Below, in pieces: positions 1 through 6,260 of a DNA stretch of 6,260 bases (positions within the stretch are counted from its first letter, which is position 1; the number at the start of each line of letters is the position of its first letter). A program made the translations under genes and the position numbers. Below the pieces are notes generated by a model. That model did not search any database and had not been told where the DNA came from. It saw nothing but the letters and a program-made list of their open reading frames with translations. Source of the stretch: a virus; the IMG/VR virus record IMGVR_UViG_3300020030_000118, positions 1 to 6,260 of that record; one strand, given 5' to 3'.

Positions 1-94
1 GTTTGGCCGCTGCTGCATTGATTAAATGTAGAGATAAGGTTAAACACAAGAGTTTGAATGATTTGTCTGGCATTTATTCTTACCATGACTGATA
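1..94 (+). repeat. Terminal redundancy, copy 1. Exact 94-nt duplicate of 6167..6260, i.e. the overlap of a circular-genome assembly. Bases 1..92 re-encode the last 29 codons plus the TGA stop (90..92) of the VP4/Rep gene.
   Basis: Base-by-base comparison of 1..94 (gtttggccgctgctgcattg...taccatgactgata) with 6167..6260 shows identity. The Rep ORF that ends at 6258 ends at the equivalent TGA at 90..92. Confidence 0.95.
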
Positions 95-118
95 TGTTTC
101 ACTAATTTACTTTTTTTT

Positions 119-1969
119 ATGGCTTCTTACACTGGAATGTCCAATCTTCAGAACCACCCTCACCGTTCTGGATTTGATATTGGACGTAAAAATGCCTTTA
201 CTGCAAAGGTTGGTGAGCTTCTTCCTGTCTACTGGGATATCTCGATGCCCGGTGACAAGTATAAATTTAACGTTGAGTATTTCACTCGTACTCAACCAGT
301 TGAAACGTCTGCCTATACTCGCCTTCGTGAGTACTTTGATTTTTACGCTGTGCCGTTACGTCTTCTTTGGAAGTCTGCGCCTTCTGTATTGACTCAGATG
401 CAGGATGTCAATCAGATTCAGGCGTTGTCTTTGACACAGAATTTGGCTTTAGGAACTTATTTGCCTTCATTCCAAATTTCTCTTTTGGGTACTTCTTTGT
501 ATTCTTTAAATGGTGGTAGTTGGACTCCTGGCAATTCTGCTTCTTTAAAGAATATGTTTGGTTTTAATCGTGCTGATTTAGCTTTCAAGCTTTTATCATA
601 TCTTGGATATGGTAATATTATAGGTTCTATTCCTCCTTCTGGTAATCGTTGGTGGTCTACTTCTTTGAAAAATACTGATGATGCTTCTAATTATACTCAA
701 CAGTATATACAGAATAATTATGTGAATGTTTTTCCTCTTTTGGCTTATCAGAAAATTTATCAGGACTTTTTCCGCTGGTCTCAATGGGAAAATTCTAACC
801 CATCGGCTTATAATGTAGACTATTTTTCCGGTATTTCGCCTTCTTTGGTTGACGTTTTACCTGTTTTTTCTTCTTCTTCTGCTTACTGGAAATCCGACAC
901 AATGTTTGACCTCAAATATTGTAACTGGAACAAGGATATGCTAATGGGTGTTCTCCCGAATTCCCAATTTGGCGACGTCGCCGTTATTGATTTTCCTGAT
1001 TCTGGCTCTGTTGATGTTGTTTTAGGCTCTGATACCGCAAAGAGTAAGGTTGGTGTTCTTTCTTCAGTTACTTCTAATACGGCTCCAGTTCCTTTTTTCG
1101 CTTTGGGTGCTTCCGCTTCTAACACTGTTCCTTCTGGCTCTTCTCTCCGTGCTGATTTGTCTACTTTAAAATCTCAGTTCAGTGTTCTTGCTCTTCGTCA
1201 GGCAGAGGCTCTTCAACGTTGGAAAGAAATTAGTCAGTCTGGTGATTCTGATTATCGTGAACAAATTCGTAAGCACTTTGGTGTTAACTTGCCCCAGGCT
1301 CTTTCCAATATGTGTACATATATCGGTGGTATTTCTCGCAATCTTGATATTAGTGAGGTTGTGAACAATAACCTTGCTGCTGAAGGTGATACTGCTGTTA
1401 TTGCTGGAAAAGGTGTAGGTGCTGGTAATGGTTCATTTACATATACTACCAATGAACATTGTGTCGTTATGTGTATTTATCATGCTGTACCTTTGCTTGA
1501 TTATTCTATTACTGGTCAAGACGGACAGCTGTTGGTTACTGATGCCGAGTCATTGCCGATTCCGGAGTTCGATAATATTGGTATGGAAACTCTTCCCATG
1601 ACCCAGATTTTCAATTCTCCGCTCGCCACCGCTTTCAACTTGTTTAACGCCGGATATAATCCTCGTTATTTCAATTGGAAGACTAAGCTTGACGTTATCA
1701 ACGGAGCGTTTACTACTACTCTGAAGTCTTGGGTTTCTCCGGTTACCGAATCTTTGCTTTCCGGTTGGGCACAATTTGCTAGTTCTACTCCTAATACTGA
1801 AAATAAGGTTGCTTTGAACTATAAGTTCTTTAAGGTCAATCCTTCTGCCCTTAATCCTATTTTTGGCGTTAATGCTGATTCTACTTGGGACACTGACCAA
1901 CTTTTGATTAACTCTTATATTGGTTGTTATGTTGCCCGTAATTTGTCTCGTGATGGTGTACCTTACTAA
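119..1969 (+). CDS. VP1: Microviridae major capsid protein (VP1 / phiX174 F-protein family), 616 aa
   Basis: Longest ORF with an ATG start. The N-terminus (NHPHRSGFDIGRKNAFTAKVGELLPVYWDISMPGDKYKF...YTRLREYFDFYAVPLRLLWK) and the central block (FSVLALRQAEALQRWKE...YREQIRKHFGV...YIGG) are recognisable conserved blocks of microvirus F/VP1 capsid proteins. Third-position T bias is strong. The size is typical of Alpavirinae-like VP1. Confidence 0.96.
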   Translation: MASYTGMSNLQNHPHRSGFDIGRKNAFTAKVGELLPVYWDISMPGDKYKFNVEYFTRTQPVETSAYTRLREYFDFYAVPLRLLWKSAPSVLTQMQDVNQIQALSLTQNLALGTYLPSFQISLLGTSLYSLNGGSWTPGNSASLKNMFGFNRADLAFKLLSYLGYGNIIGSIPPSGNRWWSTSLKNTDDASNYTQQYIQNNYVNVFPLLAYQKIYQDFFRWSQWENSNPSAYNVDYFSGISPSLVDVLPVFSSSSAYWKSDTMFDLKYCNWNKDMLMGVLPNSQFGDVAVIDFPDSGSVDVVLGSDTAKSKVGVLSSVTSNTAPVPFFALGASASNTVPSGSSLRADLSTLKSQFSVLALRQAEALQRWKEISQSGDSDYREQIRKHFGVNLPQALSNMCTYIGGISRNLDISEVVNNNLAAEGDTAVIAGKGVGAGNGSFTYTTNEHCVVMCIYHAVPLLDYSITGQDGQLLVTDAESLPIPEFDNIGMETLPMTQIFNSPLATAFNLFNAGYNPRYFNWKTKLDVINGAFTTTLKSWVSPVTESLLSGWAQFASSTPNTENKVALNYKFFKVNPSALNPIFGVNADSTWDTDQLLINSYIGCYVARNLSRDGVPY

Positions 1970-1981
1970 ATCTTTTTAATT

Positions 1982-2464
1982 ATGATTGGAAAGTTTAATT
2001 CTTTAAAAAATTTGGAACAAGATTCCGATCTTATTCCCAATGTTGAGCCGGATGCTTTTGCCGTTGCTCCTTCTTTTGATTGTACCGAGGAACTTCGTGT
2101 AGAAATCGATGATTCTAATGAAGCTCGCCCGGTTCGTTATACATCTGATGTTCGTTTGATTCTTCACACTAAAGACTTGGCTTCTCGTGCTGGTCTTACT
2201 GTTGCTTCTAAGTTTGGCCAAAATAAACAATCTGTTTCTCAGATTCAACAGATTATGGATTCAATGTCTGATGATGACCTTTTGAATACGGTTCGTTCCC
2301 GTCATATTCAGGCTCCTTCTGAGATTATTGCCTGGTCTAAGGAATTGTCGGCTTATGCTGAAAATCTTGAGTCTCAAGCACAAGAATTGATTGATGCTGA
2401 AACTGCTAAACAAGAAGCAGAAAAGGCGGCTGCTGCTTCCGCTCCTGCTGCTTCTTCTGAATAA
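1982..2464 (+). CDS. Hypothetical acidic protein, 160 aa. Possible internal scaffolding-type (VP3-like) protein, judged by position and composition only.
   Basis: ATG start 12 nt after the VP1 stop. Codon bias (T3) matches the neighbouring genes. The stop TAA (2462..2464) overlaps the next ATG (2464..2466) as TAATG. The protein is net acidic, with a helical C-terminal part (ENLESQAQELIDAETAKQEAEKAAAASAPAASSE). I recognise no family motif with certainty. Confidence 0.7.
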   Translation: MIGKFNSLKNLEQDSDLIPNVEPDAFAVAPSFDCTEELRVEIDDSNEARPVRYTSDVRLILHTKDLASRAGLTVASKFGQNKQSVSQIQQIMDSMSDDDLLNTVRSRHIQAPSEIIAWSKELSAYAENLESQAQELIDAETAKQEAEKAAAASAPAASSE

Positions 2465-3525
2465 TGGGTCTTCTTGGTTCAGTTGCTGGTGGTCTCTTTG
2501 GTATTGGTTCTTCTGCTATTCAAAATTCGCAGAATAGACAAAATGTCCGGGAGACCAATCAGATGAACTATAAGATAAACCAGATGAACAACCAGTTTAA
2601 CGAGCGTATGGCAATGCAGCAGCGCGATTTCCAGGAAAATATGTGGAATAAGGAGAACGCATATAACACTGCCTCCGCGCAACGTCAACGTCTCGAAGAA
2701 GCTGGTTTAAATCCTTATCTGATGATGAACGGTGGTTCTGCCGGTACTGCTCAATCTGTTGGTACCGGTGCAACCGCTTCATCTTCCGGTAATGCTCAGA
2801 TGCAACCTTTCCAGGCTGATTATTCAGGCGTCCAGCAGGCTATCGGCTCTGTGTTTCAATCCCAGGTTCAGCAAGCTCAGGTATCACAGTTACAAGGTCA
2901 AAAGAATCTTGCGGATGCCCAGGCTATGCAGGCTCTTTCTAATGTTGATTGGTCTAAAATGACAAAAGAGACACGTGAGTATCTGAAAGCTACTGGTTTG
3001 GCTCGTGCCCAGCTTGGCTATTCCAAGGAAATGCAGGAATTGGATAATATGGCTTTTGCCGGTCGTCTCCTTCAGGCTCAAGGTACAACGCAATTGCTTG
3101 ATGCTGAAACTAAGACTGTTCTTAATAAGTATCTCGACCAGCAACAACAAGCTGATTTGAGTACAAAGGCTGCCGAATATTATAATCAAATGTCTCATGG
3201 CCATCTGAATTATAATCAGGCTAAGAAAGTCCTTGCTGATGAAGTGTTAACTTATGCCCGTGCCAAAGGTCAGAAAATCAGTAATAAGGTTGCTGAATCT
3301 ACTGCTGATTCTTTGATTCGAGCTTCCAATGCCTCTAATCATTCGAATGCTGAATTTGAGCTTGAAGCTGCTAAATTTAATCGCGAACGTGCTCGTTCTC
3401 GTAGTATCGAGGATTGGTATCGTTCTCGTAATGAAGGCAAGAAATACAAGTATTATGACGCTGATAAGGCCGTTCATTATGGTACCTCTATCGGTAATAC
3501 TATAGGAACCTTTCTGCCCTGGTAG
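2464..3525 (+). CDS. VP2: Microviridae minor capsid / DNA pilot protein (VP2-like, functional analogue of phiX174 H), 353 aa
   Basis: Gly-rich hydrophobic N-terminus (MGLLGSVAGGLFGIGSS), then a Q/N-rich helical region. The block NTASAQRQRLEEAGLNPYLMMNGG matches the characteristic (A/S)xQRxxxxAGLNP(x)L signature of microvirus VP2 proteins. It sits immediately downstream of the capsid gene module. Confidence 0.85.
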   Translation: MGLLGSVAGGLFGIGSSAIQNSQNRQNVRETNQMNYKINQMNNQFNERMAMQQRDFQENMWNKENAYNTASAQRQRLEEAGLNPYLMMNGGSAGTAQSVGTGATASSSGNAQMQPFQADYSGVQQAIGSVFQSQVQQAQVSQLQGQKNLADAQAMQALSNVDWSKMTKETREYLKATGLARAQLGYSKEMQELDNMAFAGRLLQAQGTTQLLDAETKTVLNKYLDQQQQADLSTKAAEYYNQMSHGHLNYNQAKKVLADEVLTYARAKGQKISNKVAESTADSLIRASNASNHSNAEFELEAAKFNRERARSRSIEDWYRSRNEGKKYKYYDADKAVHYGTSIGNTIGTFLPW

Positions 3526-3548
3526 TGCTTTTTGTTTGTTGTGTGTTT

Positions 3549-3582
3549 ACCCGGCTCGTAGTGATACGCGTCGGGTTTTGTT
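3549..3582 (+). terminator. Candidate intrinsic terminator after the structural gene block
   Basis: The hairpin ACCCGGCTCGTA-GTGA-TACGCGTCGGGT (3549..3576) has 12 stem positions with one T/C mismatch and one G.T pair, and a GNRA-type GTGA loop. It is followed directly by a T-run (TTTTGTTG) and begins 24 nt after the VP2 stop. Confidence 0.5.
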
Positions 3583-3620
3583 GCTTGGAGTAACTTCTGG
3601 CAACCGCGCGAAGCGTGGTT
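3580..3620 (+). other. Two adjacent, edge-overlapping stem-loops in the packaged strand, the second containing a GCGAAGC mini-hairpin
   Basis: 3580..3604, GTTGCTTGGA-gtaac-TTCTGGCAAC, forms about 10 stem positions with wobbles and one mismatch. 3602..3620, AACCGC-GCGAAGC-GTGGTT, forms an 8-bp stem (one G.T pair) closed by a GAA loop. GCGAAGC itself is at 3608..3614. Confidence 0.6.
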
Positions 3621-3701
3621 ATACACCCCCTGAATTCCGGGAGACCCTGTCGACTGGAATCAGAGCCGTTAGGCTATAGTACTGCCTTCCTCAAATCTTG
3701 A

Positions 3702-3720
3702 TGCTTGCAACGCGTAAGCA
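3702..3720 (+). other. Stem-loop TGCTTGC-aacgc-GTAAGCA
   Basis: A 7-position stem (one G.T pair) with a 5-nt loop, found by hand pairing. It contains an ACGCGT palindrome. Confidence 0.5.
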
Positions 3721-3802
3721 ATTTCCCGGAGAACCTTTCTTTGCCGTCGCTGCTATACCCTAAAATCTCCTTTGACGAAGTCTACATGAGTTTGCCCGGA
3801 GG

Positions 3803-3827
3803 GAAAGCTATTTACCTCATAGCTTTC
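3803..3827 (+). other. Perfect 9-bp inverted repeat: GAAAGCTAT (3803..3811), loop TTACCTC, ATAGCTTTC (3819..3827)
   Basis: The two arms are exact reverse complements. A third partial copy, ATAGCTT at 3879..3885, could pair alternatively with 3805..3811. Confidence 0.7.
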
Positions 3828-3891
3828 AGTCTCTCCTTGTCTTATAAGCGCAAACTCACAGACCAGCCTGCCACCCATATAGCTTATTGTT

Positions 3892-3905
3892 TATTAATGT
3901 TAATA
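3892..3905. repeat. AT-rich palindrome TATTAA-TG-TTAATA immediately upstream of the candidate promoter
   Basis: The 6-nt arms are exact reverse complements separated by 2 nt. Confidence 0.6.
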
Positions 3906-3918
3906 TTTTACGTTGACA

Positions 3919-3951
3919 TTTGTTTTTTTCAAGCATTTATTTATATCTTTG
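3919..3951 (+). promoter_or_regulatory. Candidate Bacteroidetes-type promoter: -33 TTTG (3919..3922), a 21-nt spacer, then -7 TAtcTTTG (3944..3951)
   Basis: It matches the published Bacteroides primary-sigma consensus TTTG-N19-21-TAnnTTTG. It lies in the only AT-rich noncoding stretch, just upstream of the first small ORF. A TTGACA hexamer is also present at 3913..3918, but no well-spaced TATAAT follows it. Confidence 0.45.
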
Positions 3952-3993
3952 CTGTGTCTTTAAAAACAATGTCTAATTTAAATTTTTGTTCTT

Positions 3994-4167
3994 ATGGAAA
4001 AGTATTATTTGTGCTCCGTTCAATCAAAAACGAATCCTAATCAGAATGAAACTATTCTCGTTCCCGTTGATGAAGTTTCTCAATTTGTTTCTTCGCATCT
4101 TTGTCCTGATTGCGTGCTTATTATTTCTTATTGTTCAACCTTTAAAGCAATTCCTGATGAAAAGTGA
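3994..4167 (+). CDS. Small hypothetical protein, 57 aa (MEKYYLCSVQSKTNPNQNETILVPVDEVSQFVSSHLCPDCVLIISYCSTFKAIPDEK). Not in the supplied ORF track, which lists nothing shorter than 60 aa.
   Basis: Hand translation from the ATG at 3994 to the TGA at 4165..4167. By hand count, 32 of 57 codons end in T, the same bias as VP1, VP2 and VP4. The overlapping frame (4046..4165) has only 12 of 40. The protein contains His35, a Cys37-Pro-Asp-Cys40 motif, and also Cys7 and Cys47. Confidence 0.45.
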   Translation: MEKYYLCSVQSKTNPNQNETILVPVDEVSQFVSSHLCPDCVLIISYCSTFKAIPDEK

Positions 4168-4246
4168 AACTAAATCTAAAATTTGGTCTGCAATTATTGC
4201 AGCTGCTGTCAGTCTTCTTACGTCTATTGCTCAAATATTTTCGTAA
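4157..4246 (+). CDS. Putative 29-aa single-pass membrane peptide (MKSETKSKIWSAIIAAAVSLLTSIAQIFS). This is my preferred reading of the 3' part of track ORF 3986..4246. The alternative start, ATG 4046, would give a 66-aa two-TM protein.
   Basis: A charged N-terminus is followed by a ~20-residue hydrophobic stretch. After 4166, 15 of 26 codons end in T (hand count), supporting translation in this frame only downstream of the 57-aa ORF. The ATG at 4157 overlaps the end of the 57-aa ORF by 11 nt. The stop is 3 nt before the peptidase ATG. Confidence 0.4.
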   Translation: MKSETKSKIWSAIIAAAVSLLTSIAQIFS

Positions 4247-4249
4247 GTC

Positions 4250-4558
4250 ATGAATCCGGCATTAATGAAATTTATTGAATGGCTCCTTCGTTGGAATATC
4301 CATTTCTCGGTTACTTCTGCTTTTCGTACTAAGAAAGAGAATGAAGCGTGTGGAGGTTCTGATAATTCCCAGCACTTAACTGGCGATGCTGTTGATTTGA
4401 AACCTCTTAATCTTTCAGTGGATGATTTTATTTTGAAAATCAAAAATTCTGGTTTTGAATTTGACCAACTTATAAAGTATCGGACTTTTGTTCACATTTC
4501 TTTCGCACGTTGTCGCAAGCCTCGTCGAATGGAACTTAATTTTACTGATAGAAAATGA
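4250..4558 (+). CDS. Zinc D,D- or L,D-peptidase of the M15 (VanY / Peptidase_M15_3-4 like) family, a minimal 102-aa endolysin-type cell-wall hydrolase
   Basis: All signature elements are present in order. They are SAFRT (SxxR), GGSDNSQHLTGDAVD (the H-x6-D zinc ligands: His42 at 4373..4375 and Asp49 at 4394..4396), and FVHISF (the third ligand, His82 at 4493..4495). The stop overlaps the VP4 start as ATGA (4555..4558). Confidence 0.88.
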   Translation: MNPALMKFIEWLLRWNIHFSVTSAFRTKKENEACGGSDNSQHLTGDAVDLKPLNLSVDDFILKIKNSGFEFDQLIKYRTFVHISFARCRKPRRMELNFTDRK

Positions 4559-6258
4559 TTACTAAAGGATTGCAGAATAAGCTAATAACTCGTTGTCAGC
4601 ACCCTCGTACGGTTATCAATAAGTATACGCATGAGCCCGTTGTTGTTTCTTGCGGCTCTTGCCCTTCTTGTGTTCTTCGTCGTTCCGGTATTCAGACTAA
4701 CCTGCTTACTACTTATTCTGCTCAGTTCCGTTATGTATACTTTGTTACTCTTACTTATGCTCCTTGTTTCCTCCCTACTTTTGAAGTTTCGGTTGTTGAA
4801 ACTTGTACGGACGATATTGCGGATGTATCCGTTGTTCCCGATATTAATAACTTGGACGCTGATAACCCTAACACTTATTTGTTTGGTTTTCGCAGCGTTC
4901 CTCGTTCCTCTTCTGTTAAGTTAAAAAACTCTACTGTTGAGCGTGTTTTCAAAGACCCTGAGATAAGATTTTCTTATCCTATGAAATCTAAGGATTTATT
5001 GTCTATTCTTGGTAAGATTAACCATGATGTTCCTAATAGAATTCCTTATGTTTGCAATCGCGACCTCGACTTATTTTTAAAACGCCTAAGAAGTTACTAC
5101 CCTGATGAGAAATTACGTTACTACGCTGTATCAGAATACGGCCCTACCAGTTTCCGCCCGCATTGGCATCTGTTATTGTTTTCCAATTCCGAGCGATTCT
5201 CGAAAACTGTTTGTGAAAATGTATCTAAAGCTTGGTCTTACGGACGTTGTGATGCGTCACTCTCGAGAGGATTCGCAGCACCGTATGTTGCGTCGTATGT
5301 TAATAGCTTTGTCGCTTTACCCGAATTTTATACTCAGATGCCAAAAGTGGTGCGCCCTAAATCCTTCCATTCCATTGGATTTACAGAATCAAATCTCTTT
5401 CCTCGAAAGGTACGAATTGCCGAAATTGATGAAGTTGCCGATAAATGCCTTGATGGAGTCCTCGTTGAGCGCAATGGACATTTTCGCACAATTAAACCTA
5501 CATGGCCGTATCTCCTTCGATTATTCCCCCGATTTTCGGACGCTATTCGTAAATCTCCATCGAGTATTTACCAGTTACTTTCTGCTGCGTTCACAGCGCC
5601 CGAACGAGTCATTCGTAGCGGATGCGCCGATATAGGATGTGATCCGTTTTCCACAAGTTCCAAGCAAAGTATTTTGTCTTTTTGTAAACAGTATTTAAAT
5701 TATGTAGATAATTATGGAAAAGAATATTCTTCAAGAAATTTTCTTGTACCAAAGGAGAACTTACCGCATAGTGATGTTCTTATTCTTTCTGAATGTCGTC
5801 TCTATGATGGTGTTAATTTGGATCCGGATTTTCGTTTGTCCCGCTGCTATCGATTTTTCCTCTCGATGTCTAAGTTCTTTCGAACGTATAATGATGAGTT
5901 TGGAGCAAACTTCTACCCCGAATCCGAACAATATGCCGGCTGCTTTGCGTGTCGAGACAGAACTTTTCGAATCCTCTCCGAATCAATAGTATCCTTTTGG
6001 AATCGGTATGACTATAATCGTCTGGTTGATTTTTATCGGACTTTGGAAGATTCCAATGATAAGGATTTGGTTGATTTTGAGCTTCGTAATTATTCGTTTC
6101 GTTATAATAGGATTGATTATGGTAAGAAAGCGGAGCCCGATTATAAAACACTTCCTCTTGTTCGTCGTTTGGCCGCTGCTGCATTGATTAAATGTAGAGA
6201 TAAGGTTAAACACAAGAGTTTGAATGATTTGTCTGGCATTTATTCTTACCATGACTGA
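4555..6258 (+). CDS. VP4: Rolling-circle replication initiator (HUH endonuclease superfamily; Microviridae VP4 / phiX174 gpA-like), 567 aa
   Basis: N-terminal Cys cluster CQHP...CGSCPSC. RCR motif 1 is FVTLTY (4741..4758). The HUH motif is HWHLLLF (5161..5181). The two-tyrosine motif is YVASYVNS (Tyr244 at 5284..5286 and Tyr248 at 5296..5298), with Y-x3-Y spacing as for the two catalytic tyrosines of phiX174 gpA. The 3' end lies in the terminal repeat. Confidence 0.95.
   Translation: MITKGLQNKLITRCQHPRTVINKYTHEPVVVSCGSCPSCVLRRSGIQTNLLTTYSAQFRYVYFVTLTYAPCFLPTFEVSVVETCTDDIADVSVVPDINNLDADNPNTYLFGFRSVPRSSSVKLKNSTVERVFKDPEIRFSYPMKSKDLLSILGKINHDVPNRIPYVCNRDLDLFLKRLRSYYPDEKLRYYAVSEYGPTSFRPHWHLLLFSNSERFSKTVCENVSKAWSYGRCDASLSRGFAAPYVASYVNSFVALPEFYTQMPKVVRPKSFHSIGFTESNLFPRKVRIAEIDEVADKCLDGVLVERNGHFRTIKPTWPYLLRLFPRFSDAIRKSPSSIYQLLSAAFTAPERVIRSGCADIGCDPFSTSSKQSILSFCKQYLNYVDNYGKEYSSRNFLVPKENLPHSDVLILSECRLYDGVNLDPDFRLSRCYRFFLSMSKFFRTYNDEFGANFYPESEQYAGCFACRDRTFRILSESIVSFWNRYDYNRLVDFYRTLEDSNDKDLVDFELRNYSFRYNRIDYGKKAEPDYKTLPLVRRLAAAALIKCRDKVKHKSLNDLSGIYSYHD
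4840..4851 (+). other. Candidate viral (+) strand origin core / Rep nick site: GATATTAATAAC, with the predicted nick between G4840 and A4841 by analogy with phiX174
   Basis: 12/12 identity with the phiX174 origin core (CAACTTG/ATATTAATAAC...). It lies inside the Rep gene, in the same codon phase (GAT ATT AAT AAC = DINN), at codons 96..99. Confidence 0.5.
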
Positions 6259-6260
6259 TA
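6167..6260 (+). repeat. Terminal redundancy, copy 2 (identical to 1..94)
   Basis: Exact 94-nt identity with the window start. Confidence 0.95.

Follow-up and report, generated by a model that had tools for sequence, protein, structure and literature searches.

A conserved 29-residue putative membrane peptide encoded next to an M15_3 peptidase gene: a candidate lysis peptide of a Bacteroides microvirus

The question raised by this locus is whether a very small open reading frame (ORF), lying directly upstream of a peptidase gene in a microvirus genome, is a gene in its own right, and whether its product could take part in host lysis. The DNA analysed (the window) is the 6,260-nt IMG/VR record IMGVR_UViG_3300020030_000118, positions 1 to 6,260. 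On its + strand, a mini ORF for a putative membrane peptide of 29 amino acids (aa), MKSETKSKIWSAIIAAAVSLLTSIAQIFS (4157..4246; ATG at 4157, TAA at 4244-4246), stands in the same frame as an ORF for a 102-aa Peptidase_M15_3, a predicted endolysin-like zinc peptidase of the LAS type (4250..4558, ATG to TGA). The original prediction, made from the sequence alone, regarded the pair as a possible holin/endolysin-like lysis module in which the peptide serves as partner of the enzyme. In the analysis reported here the peptidase is already known and the mini ORF is the new element. Comparative evidence indicates that it is a real gene with a function of its own, and we tentatively favour a role in lysis.

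Two large groups of genomes were compared. Type A is the clade of the window (69 genomes from GenBank and IMG/VR), and type B is a second large clade with peptidases 45-49% identical to that of the window (110 genomes, 102 with and 8 without the peptidase). The mini ORF is intact in 68 of the 69 type-A genomes; in L051 it is broken by a nonsense codon and a 7-nt duplication. Fifty-eight distinct nucleotide versions encode only 18 peptides, and 36 of the 68 peptides are identical to that of the window. The ratio of nonsynonymous to synonymous substitution rates (dN/dS) is 0.095, versus 0.186 for the type-A peptidase and 0.177 (60 genomes) for a 57-aa ORF just upstream; these values, like those given below, come from short sequences that are phylogenetically non-independent. 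Variable sites are distributed 11/5/23 over the three codon positions (P = 5e-6 for the third-position excess), and the other two frames over the mini ORF contain stops in every genome tested. The mini ORF is also the nucleotide conservation peak of the surrounding 1 kb, with a nucleotide diversity (pi) of 0.08 as compared with 0.18-0.37 in the peptidase gene. The predicted RNA fold of positions 4140-4280 is no better than that of shuffled sequences (z = -0.29), and RNA structure is therefore no explanation of this peak.

The type-B homologue, MKSNNIWKIIIGAVSAALGYILNAIGL, has 27 aa and is intact in 110/110 genomes. From its Trp codon to the stop, 85 nucleotide versions encode 14 peptides, with a dN/dS of 0.065 and a dS of 0.88, which means that synonymous sites are near saturation. 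A further genome, mar62, whose peptidase is 53% identical to that of the window, carries the mini peptide MKAETKSKLWAAIISALVSLLSNLANIL; the homologous peptides of mar62 and type B are 27-28 aa long. In total, the mini ORF adjoins the peptidase gene in about 170 genomes. A check of synteny in relatives, which the original prediction had called for, found the small transmembrane (TM) ORF intact upstream of the M15 gene in all 102 peptidase-bearing type-B genomes and in mar62 as well as in the 68 type-A genomes; apart from the broken copy in L051, it is missing only in mar63. Degenerate DNA patterns for both peptide types matched only microvirus-sized contigs in IMG/VR (4.1-9.4 kb among the matches listed), namely 62 stretches for type A and 92 for type B, and a tblastn search of GenBank phages with the type-B peptide matched 35 records, all from microviruses. 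It is this comparative evidence, and not hydrophobicity alone, on which the 29-aa ORF is judged to be a real protein-coding gene.

Close GenBank relatives bear no annotation between the 57-aa ORF and the peptidase gene, and a few third-party-annotation nr records and one bajarodmic virus record label such ORFs 'hypothetical protein'. In Dulem viruses 238, 243 and 226 (L007:3985-4359, L008:3998-4372 and L009:3935-4309), GenBank gives a 124-aa 'peptidase/hypothetical' coding sequence (CDS) that runs on across the mini ORF: residues 1-21 (MENHHWCCLCC...) result from reading the mini ORF in the wrong frame, and the peptidase in fact begins at the internal MNV...

The peptide and the peptidase are separable. 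All type-A pattern matches in IMG/VR carry the peptidase. Within type B, eight contigs (L138, L167, L170, L182, L185, L202, L209 and L229) lack the peptidase gene, and in them Rep comes directly after a 65-aa ORF and the mini ORF. Since their Rep proteins (57-72% identical to those of peptidase-bearing type B; quick neighbour-joining tree) and their major capsid proteins (MCPs) nest within type-B diversity, the absence of the peptidase represents a loss. The eight genomes have eight nucleotide versions of the mini ORF, which encode three peptides with a dN/dS of 0.055 and a dS of 0.81. The peptide was thus kept under equal constraint after the loss of the peptidase and therefore has its own function. 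An Asn in the outer half of the helix, present in 102/102 peptidase-bearing type-B genomes, is Ser in 8/8 of the peptidase-less ones (...GYILSAIGV), which probably reflects a single event. The reverse situation is found in mar63, which has an intact peptidase gene and no mini ORF. No close relatives of mar63 were found in IMG/VR, so that the peptide-less state is a singleton. In place of the mini ORF, mar63 has a 40-aa strongly basic amphipathic ORF, MKRFLYELKRLLPLLKQVYPLIKSLLSACVRYLKNRRKNE (L006:4635-4757), which overprints the last part of the 58-aa gene, reaches into the start of the peptidase gene and may be a replacement or a spurious ORF.

Relatives without the peptidase whose Rep is only 25-37% identical have retained a 57-aa ORF homologue, followed by a small membrane ORF just before Rep. 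In bajarodmic viruses 429 and 669 the latter encodes MSKVWKEIVRAIITAAISVLTTLGIM (unannotated) and MENNNKKRNWVTVLISVLTSALTALATALGIS, respectively, and a profile of the peptide family ranks these two at the top of 561 small ORFs, with an E-value of only about 0.1. Three Dulem viruses (L313:1107-1304, L316:1286-1477 and L318:1275-1478) encode 63-67-aa proteins with a TM segment, a lipobox-like Cys and a Ser/Thr-rich tail, and a chicken microvirus (L319:1285-1461) has a lipoprotein-like 58-aa ORF in this slot. In all four the N-terminal segment is TM or signal-like, and the lipobox-like Cys stands in VQSC, VQAC, AQSC and LVSC; in L313 the protein lies before the homologue of the 57-aa ORF and not directly before Rep. 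These 58-67-aa proteins may be lipoproteins. The persistence of the peptide in the eight peptidase-less genomes, and of the peptide or a small membrane ORF in the distant ones, contradicts the idea that it is simply a helper of the peptidase. In mar52, which belongs to an independent microvirus lineage with another gene order (peptidase after Rep) and a 170-aa M15 protein, an annotated 29-aa one-helix TM ORF, MIPKTWKALALDVVKYALGALAAFLTSIL (L135:6023-6112), directly follows the peptidase gene. In mar54 a 35-aa amphipathic non-TM ORF takes its place.

The 102-aa enzyme matches Pfam PF08291 (Peptidase_M15_3) with 51.5 bits (cut-off 23.2; E = 1.3e-13) over profile positions 29-108 of 108, and PHROG 894 'endolysin' with an E-value of 8e-18. 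Residues S23-x2-R26, H42-x6-D49, D72 and H82 are invariant in alignments with 12 diverse homologues (down to 43% identity) and 30 close ones, in agreement with the intact SxxR, H-x6-D and His ligands that had been read from the window alone. An AlphaFold2 (AF2) model (mean predicted local confidence, pLDDT, 85) was compared with the PDB using Foldseek. The top match was 1lbu, a Zn DD-peptidase (probability 0.97, E = 0.0097, TM-score only 0.45), followed by the endolysin LysB4 and VanY, all with modest TM-scores, while the BFVD search gave clear matches to predicted phage and microvirus M15 peptidases (E-values from 8e-11 to 1e-5). A profile search of the PDB gave a weak match to the T5 L-alanyl-D-glutamate peptidase 2mxz (E = 0.007). 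On these family and residue matches, the protein is regarded as a bona fide endolysin-type member of M15_3.

The peptidase (12.0 kDa, pI 9.5) has no signal peptide and no TM segment, as had been proposed; its highest Kyte-Doolittle value over 19 residues is 0.63. Its closest non-microviral homologues, 35-44% identical, are proteins of 130-174 aa encoded by Bacteroidales prophages and one 37.7-kb phage contig. In comparison with them the microviral protein is about 30-70 residues shorter at its N-terminus. Together with the start of the Pfam match at profile position 29, this bears out the earlier remark that 102 aa is close to a minimal core, and 'minimal core' describes the trimmed enzyme fairly. 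Residues 87-102 (window 4508-4555) form a conserved strongly basic tail, RCRKPRRMELNFTDRK, which in type B reads ...RNRHQVIDKRK. Cationic tails of some Gram-negative endolysins interact with membranes or lipopolysaccharide. The presence of the gene is not new, as had been suspected: it is annotated in close GenBank relatives and such genes have been in the literature since 2012, when M15_3 genes were found in 6 Alpavirinae and 5 gokushoviruses, their horizontal acquisition was shown and an endolysin role was proposed (Roux et al. 2012, PMC3394797). Peptidases were later listed among the lysis-associated accessory genes of microviruses (Kirchberger et al. 2022, PMC9239249).

The mini ORF and the peptidase gene of the window are separated by the three nucleotides GTC (4247..4249, + strand). 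This same-frame junction, TAA-GTC-ATG, suggests that the two are coupled by termination and reinitiation of translation. The spacer is 3 nt in most type-A genomes and 9-21 nt, 16 nt (out of frame), about 35 or about 53 nt in the others; L016 has two stops between the ORFs. In the type-B clade and in mar62, the end of the mini ORF and the start of the peptidase gene overlap out of frame by ATGA. Downstream, the peptidase stop and the Rep start of the window overlap by ATGA as well (4555..4558, + strand; Rep at 4555-6258 in the ORF list). The statements of the original prediction that can be read directly from the sequence, namely the ORF list, the ATGA overlap, the TAA-GTC-ATG junction, the peptide sequence and the motifs, all hold. 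The 66-aa version of the peptide that it had offered as an alternative, starting at ATG 4046, has to be discarded: it overprints the 57-aa gene, which is conserved and under purifying selection, and it is not conserved itself. In at least 22 of the 69 clade genomes the 29-codon ATG is the sole ATG of the ORF, and several have in-frame stops upstream of it.

The 57-aa ORF (3994..4167, + strand) encodes a soluble acidic protein (MEKYYLCSVQSK...) and always lies directly 5' of the mini ORF, with an 11-nt overlap (...GATGAAAAGTGA). It is called 'hypothetical protein' in all close GenBank relatives, and all related lineages that were examined have homologues, whether they carry the peptidase or not. 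Among 364 database homologues no Pfam domain was found. An AF2 model (pLDDT 84) has a beta-beta-alpha-beta arrangement, for which a Foldseek search of the PDB returned no informative fold match. The protein may be part of the same module as the small membrane ORF. A candidate Bacteroides-type promoter (TTTG, 21-nt spacer, TAtcTTTG; 3919..3951, + strand) ends 42 nt before the 57-aa ORF; the consensus of such promoters is said to have been described by Bayley and colleagues in 2000. In 56 of 64 clade genomes the motif TTTG-N17-23-TAnnTTTG is found in the 150 nt that precede the 57-aa ORF, versus a genome-wide background of 0.043 per 150 nt, and its position is fixed across the clade, with its end 40-46 nt ahead of the ATG. 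Placed here, this candidate promoter would serve a single unit made up of the 57-aa ORF, the mini ORF, the peptidase gene and Rep. A scan for sigma-70 promoters and terminators gave nothing informative, as expected for Bacteroides.

The window is a complete microvirus genome. Its ends form an exact 94-nt direct repeat (1-94 = 6167-6260), from which it follows that the genome is a circle of 6,166 nt opened within the 3' end of Rep; an ORF at 3..92 is the repeated C-terminus of Rep only. Every gene is on the + strand: the MCP (119-1969; PF02305, PHROG 514), a scaffold-like protein (1982-2464), the DNA pilot protein (2464-3525; PHROG 8689) and, after about 470 nt without a conserved ORF (3525-3993), the 57-aa ORF (3994-4167), the 29-aa mini ORF (4157-4246), the 102-aa M15_3 peptidase ORF (4250-4558) and Rep (4555-6258; PF23343, PHROG 942). 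The nearest GenBank records, at 83-85% nucleotide identity, are Dulem viruses 236 and 257 from lemur faeces and bajarodmic viruses 1134 and 410 from rodent faeces, which have the same gene order and a CDS already labelled 'peptidase'. Scans of the window for Rfam families and tRNAs found nothing.

Metagenome contigs of 21-65 kb encode proteins 84-85% identical to the window peptidase. On these contigs (L114-L117) the whole genome of a close relative is integrated between gyrA-TPR and usp/batD, and the flanking GyrA is identical to that of Bacteroides uniformis. In L117 an imperfect direct repeat of 23 nt flanks the insert (ATATTAAACATAATGACGATATT / ATATTAAACATTCTGACGATATT; L117:9462-9484 and 15856-15878, 6,394 nt apart). 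Integration of this kind, at dif-like sites and without an integrase, is known for microviral proviruses of Bacteroidetes (Krupovic and Forterre 2011, PMC3091885). The window fits the Alpavirinae-like temperate class in having MCP, pilot and Rep genes and in the integration of its relatives between direct repeats as in that report (PMC3091885). Because close relatives are integrated beside a gyrA identical to that of B. uniformis, the virus is regarded as temperate, Alpavirinae-like and Bacteroides-infecting; its host, placed by the prophage copies, is the Gram-negative Bacteroides uniformis. A scan of GTDB genomes with the peptidase profile found only distant M15 genes (29-57% identity) and no integrated close relative.

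Some further features of the region ahead of the promoter-like motif were recorded. A diverged counterpart of the att site, ATGTTAATATTTTACGTTGACAT, apparently lies at about 3897-3919, directly before the motif (tentative assignment). Positions 3526-3790 are non-coding and form the most G+C-rich region (0.46 in the composition window 3251-3750, versus 0.34-0.42 in the windows over 3501-6250), with several G+C-rich hairpins and a DNA fold z-score of -1.66. This region can be aligned with the prophage relative L117 (about 82% over window 1-3914) and may represent a complementary-strand origin or another cis element. The ORF start MSLP(G/E)GKAIYLIAFS... at 3786-3830 is kept among relatives (L001-L004, L117:15608-15832), after which lengths diverge (38-84 aa); it looks like nucleotide-level conservation near the right end of the prophage rather than a gene. 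Several close relatives have an extra ORF of the 60-aa class (MKRLTPDTRC...) between the att region and the 57-aa ORF (L001:4022-4204, L002:3768-4046, L117:9542-9724), which the window lacks.

What the mini peptide might do can be approached through its composition. It consists of a basic N-terminal head, MKSETKSK, to which its charges are confined, a Trp (W10) and one 20-residue helix, with no C-terminal tail. On a helical wheel, a bulky face is opposed to a small/polar one (S11 A15 V18 T22 Q26 S29 / A12 A16 S19 S23). All versions share the short basic head, the Trp, a helix half made of I/L/V/F and half of G/A/S/T, and an amide residue (Q26 or N) at W+16. A face of G/A/S/T with an amide is typical of helices that self-associate or line channels. 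These 6-kb genomes show no other lysis candidate.

The analysis establishes the identities of the genes, the purifying selection that acts on the peptide, the synteny, the separability of peptide and peptidase, and the host. The interpretation that we favour, with a confidence slightly short of even, is that the peptide is a lineage-wide membrane-acting lysis effector and that the trimmed endolysin coupled to it is an add-on that the virus can do without. We infer the insertion and oligomerisation of the peptide, the lytic role of either protein and the order of events, which may be as follows. The peptide would insert as a single helix, N-terminus in and C-terminus out, into the cytoplasmic membrane, where its small/polar face would lead to self-association. 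At the end of infection it would de-energise or perforate the cytoplasmic membrane, holin-like in action, as the basic lysis mechanism of the lineage; in this capacity it would be older than, and independent of, the peptidase. The latter would be an endolysin that arrived by horizontal transfer, was reduced to the catalytic core and came to lie immediately after the peptide gene, with its translation coupled to that of the peptide. Lacking an export signal, the enzyme would reach the murein only after the peptide has breached or de-energised the membrane, and would then cut peptide stems or cross-links, making lysis faster, more secure or less dependent on host growth. It would remain accessory and losable. 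A wider proposal, which is possible and which we put forward with more reserve, is that the family of 27-32-aa peptides supplies the lysis protein of the Alpavirinae-like microviruses that infect Bacteroidales, and that no smaller 'holin' forming pores or lesions has been seen so far. The lineage would then record a step from single-peptide to two-component, holin/endolysin-like lysis through the capture of an M15 gene, which was later lost in at least one sublineage.

Tailed phages and prophages of Bacteroidales offer the closest comparison. The nearest non-microviral M15 genes, those of Bacteroidales phages and prophages, lie directly behind genes for TM proteins of 65-163 aa, which is the classical holin position; examples are 85-aa and 82-aa one-TM proteins that overlap the M15 start and 65-66-aa two-TM proteins. 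These cassettes (for example L119, L312, L131, L132 and L118) resemble the microviral arrangement in the small TM gene directly upstream of, and often overlapping, an M15_3 gene, and in a homologous enzyme (35-44% identity) that lacks a signal sequence. They differ from it in that the upstream proteins have one or two TM segments followed by a charged or coiled C-terminal part and are dissimilar to the 29-aa peptide, and in that the M15 proteins, of 130-174 aa, have an N-terminal segment that is absent from the microviral enzyme. Such cassettes are most plausibly the source of the microviral enzyme.

Several observations weigh against the lytic interpretation, and above all against calling the peptide a holin. 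The criteria of the holin class are reportedly those set out by Wang, Smith and Young in 2000. As a phage protein of 29 aa with one 20-residue hydrophobic helix, encoded 3 nt upstream of an endolysin-type gene and next to such a gene in about 170 genomes, the peptide resembles a holin, yet eight genomes carry it without an endolysin. Its last residues (...IAQIFS in type A, ...NAIGL in type B) still belong to the helix, with no charged hydrophilic C-terminal domain after them. Pfam gave no match, and the best PHROG match of the peptide, the holin family phrog_443, is not significant (E = 0.13). Characterised holins have about 60-150 aa and typically a dual start; the peptide, at 27-29 aa, is far below these sizes and lacks a dual start. 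A single 20-residue helix would need large assemblies to let a 12-kDa enzyme pass. Neither partner is obligatory for the other, since mar63 has only the peptidase and eight genomes have only the peptide. With an E-value of about 0.1, homology of the window peptide to the small peptides of bajarodmic viruses 429 and 669 is only suggestive, and the 58-67-aa lipobox/TM proteins found in the slot of other relatives would also fit superinfection exclusion or another envelope role. Furthermore, since the virus is temperate, functions expressed in the lysogen are possible. Because of the missing C-terminal domain, the lack of a family match, the size and the persistence without an endolysin, the peptide cannot be filed as a holin, and 'holin' can only describe how it may act. 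The proposal of a holin/endolysin-like module stands in part: the enzyme is of endolysin type and the adjacent TM ORF is conserved, while the peptide lacks several of the features that define holins.

Published accounts of microviral M15_3 genes concern the same family in the same virus group (Alpavirinae-like, from human and animal gut), without describing a small TM partner (PMC3394797, PMC9239249). In one of them only an adjacent 'unknown ORF' was noted, in 5 of 11 cases (Roux et al. 2012, PMC3394797), and in the other overprinted genes were omitted (Kirchberger et al. 2022, PMC9239249). The full-text literature search returned no account of a TM or holin-like partner of microviral peptidases, or of an Alpavirinae lysis protein. 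Among other well-studied systems, the best PDB matches, T5 endolysin (2mxz/8p3a) and the Zn DD-peptidase of S. albus (1lbu), share with the enzyme the motif order SxxR, H-x6-D and final His and, as is predicted, the LAS core. They are larger, with 137 and 213 aa as compared with 102 aa in the window, the matches are weak (E = 0.007; TM-score 0.45), and bond specificity cannot be inferred. As for the peptide, the pinholin S21-68 of phage 21, a protein of 68 aa with two TM segments and a glycine-zipper-like face, self-associates and depolarises the membrane, and its partner is a signal-anchor-release (SAR) endolysin. It is likewise a small membrane protein with a small-residue helix face; here, by contrast, there is one helix in 27-29 aa and the enzyme has no membrane anchor.

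Two rival explanations see in the peptide something other than a membrane-disrupting effector. It might have a non-lytic role in the envelope, as an accessory of burst size or assembly or as a prophage-expressed superinfection-exclusion factor, with the peptidase having merely landed beside it. The temperate nature of the virus, the separability of peptide and peptidase in both directions, and the lipoprotein-like or TM slot proteins with Ser/Thr-rich tails in related viruses, which are reminiscent of exclusion lipoproteins, are in line with this. K of phiX174, a non-essential membrane protein of 56 aa, is a microviral precedent, and TisB (29 aa) and other type I toxin peptides of similar size depolarise membranes. 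All are very small single-helix inner-membrane peptides like the one predicted here, which differs from them in genomic position and regulation. We consider such a role unlikely, though worth keeping in view: the gene and Rep appear to form one unit that follows a conserved promoter-like motif, about 170 genomes have the peptide gene coupled to a gene of endolysin type, the M15 genes of Bacteroidales phages lie behind TM proteins in holin position, and the peptidase-less members would be left with no visible lysis gene. Rather less probable still is that the peptide is a target-specific single-gene lysis protein (Sgl, or amurin) like phiX174 E or LysM of ssRNA phages, which blocks a membrane step of murein synthesis, the M15 enzyme being an independent add-on that acts once the envelope fails. 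E, overprinted in gene D, inhibits MraY; its functional part is the N-terminal TM region, and its helix needs a proline (P21). Known Sgls are single-TM proteins of down to 37 aa, the size of LysM. The phages in question are tiny, infect Gram-negative hosts and, as is predicted here, lyse by one short single-TM protein. The strong constraint in peptidase-less genomes and the extreme conservation (36/68 peptides identical), as expected for a fit to a conserved host protein, would agree with an amurin, and a single gene is the classical lysis solution of microviruses (PMC3394797). However, the peptide gene is free-standing, with only the 11-nt overlap, instead of overprinted, its helix has no proline, it shows no sequence similarity to E or to the ssRNA-phage proteins, and E has no accompanying muralytic enzyme. 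A signal-less cytoplasmic enzyme would also have no route to the murein before lysis, and would gain little from tight coupling, and the conserved G/A/S/T face fits self-association at least equally well.

The other two concern the enzyme. That M15 is a virion-associated entry enzyme, opening the murein for the pilot protein, with the mini peptide unrelated, finds a parallel in M15A domains that form part of large tail or virion proteins in tailed phages (BFVD: Gp5-like proteins and proteins of about 1,000 aa). The gene, however, lies in the non-structural block by Rep, apart from MCP, scaffold and pilot genes; it was lost in a long-lived sublineage without other changes; and its nearest homologues are free-standing and belong to holin-adjacent cassettes. 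No packaging signal is known and a T=1 capsid offers little room, and on these points we hold an entry role to be very unlikely. Least credible, to the point that we reject it, is a fusion in which stop-codon readthrough, or a sequencing or annotation artefact, joins mini ORF and peptidase into a 132-aa signal-anchored (SAR-like) endolysin. The two ORFs do share a frame in the window and in most of type A, with only TAA or TAG and one codon between them. Yet the stop itself varies between these two codons, the spacers vary in length and frame and some contain extra stops, mar62 and all type-B genomes have the out-of-frame ATGA overlap, and TAA is the ordinary stop of the MCP and scaffold genes in the window. 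Peptide and enzyme are encoded by separate ORFs in all lineages, unlike the single protein of a SAR endolysin.

Microviruses outside the phiX174 group count among the most abundant gut phages of humans and animals. The peptidase alone cannot explain lysis, because it has no way across the membrane and is absent from close relatives. A peptide of 27-29 residues that is better conserved than any neighbouring gene, and kept with or without the peptidase, is a testable candidate for their lysis factor. Standard annotation of these genomes misses or mis-annotates a core gene, and in some GenBank records the peptidase is wrongly extended across the mini ORF. If the lysis interpretation is true, the lower size limit of phage lysis or holin-like proteins would be revised downwards, a minimal virus would be seen assembling a two-component lysis system, and a minimal 102-aa murein peptidase together with a Bacteroides-specific membrane-active peptide would become available.

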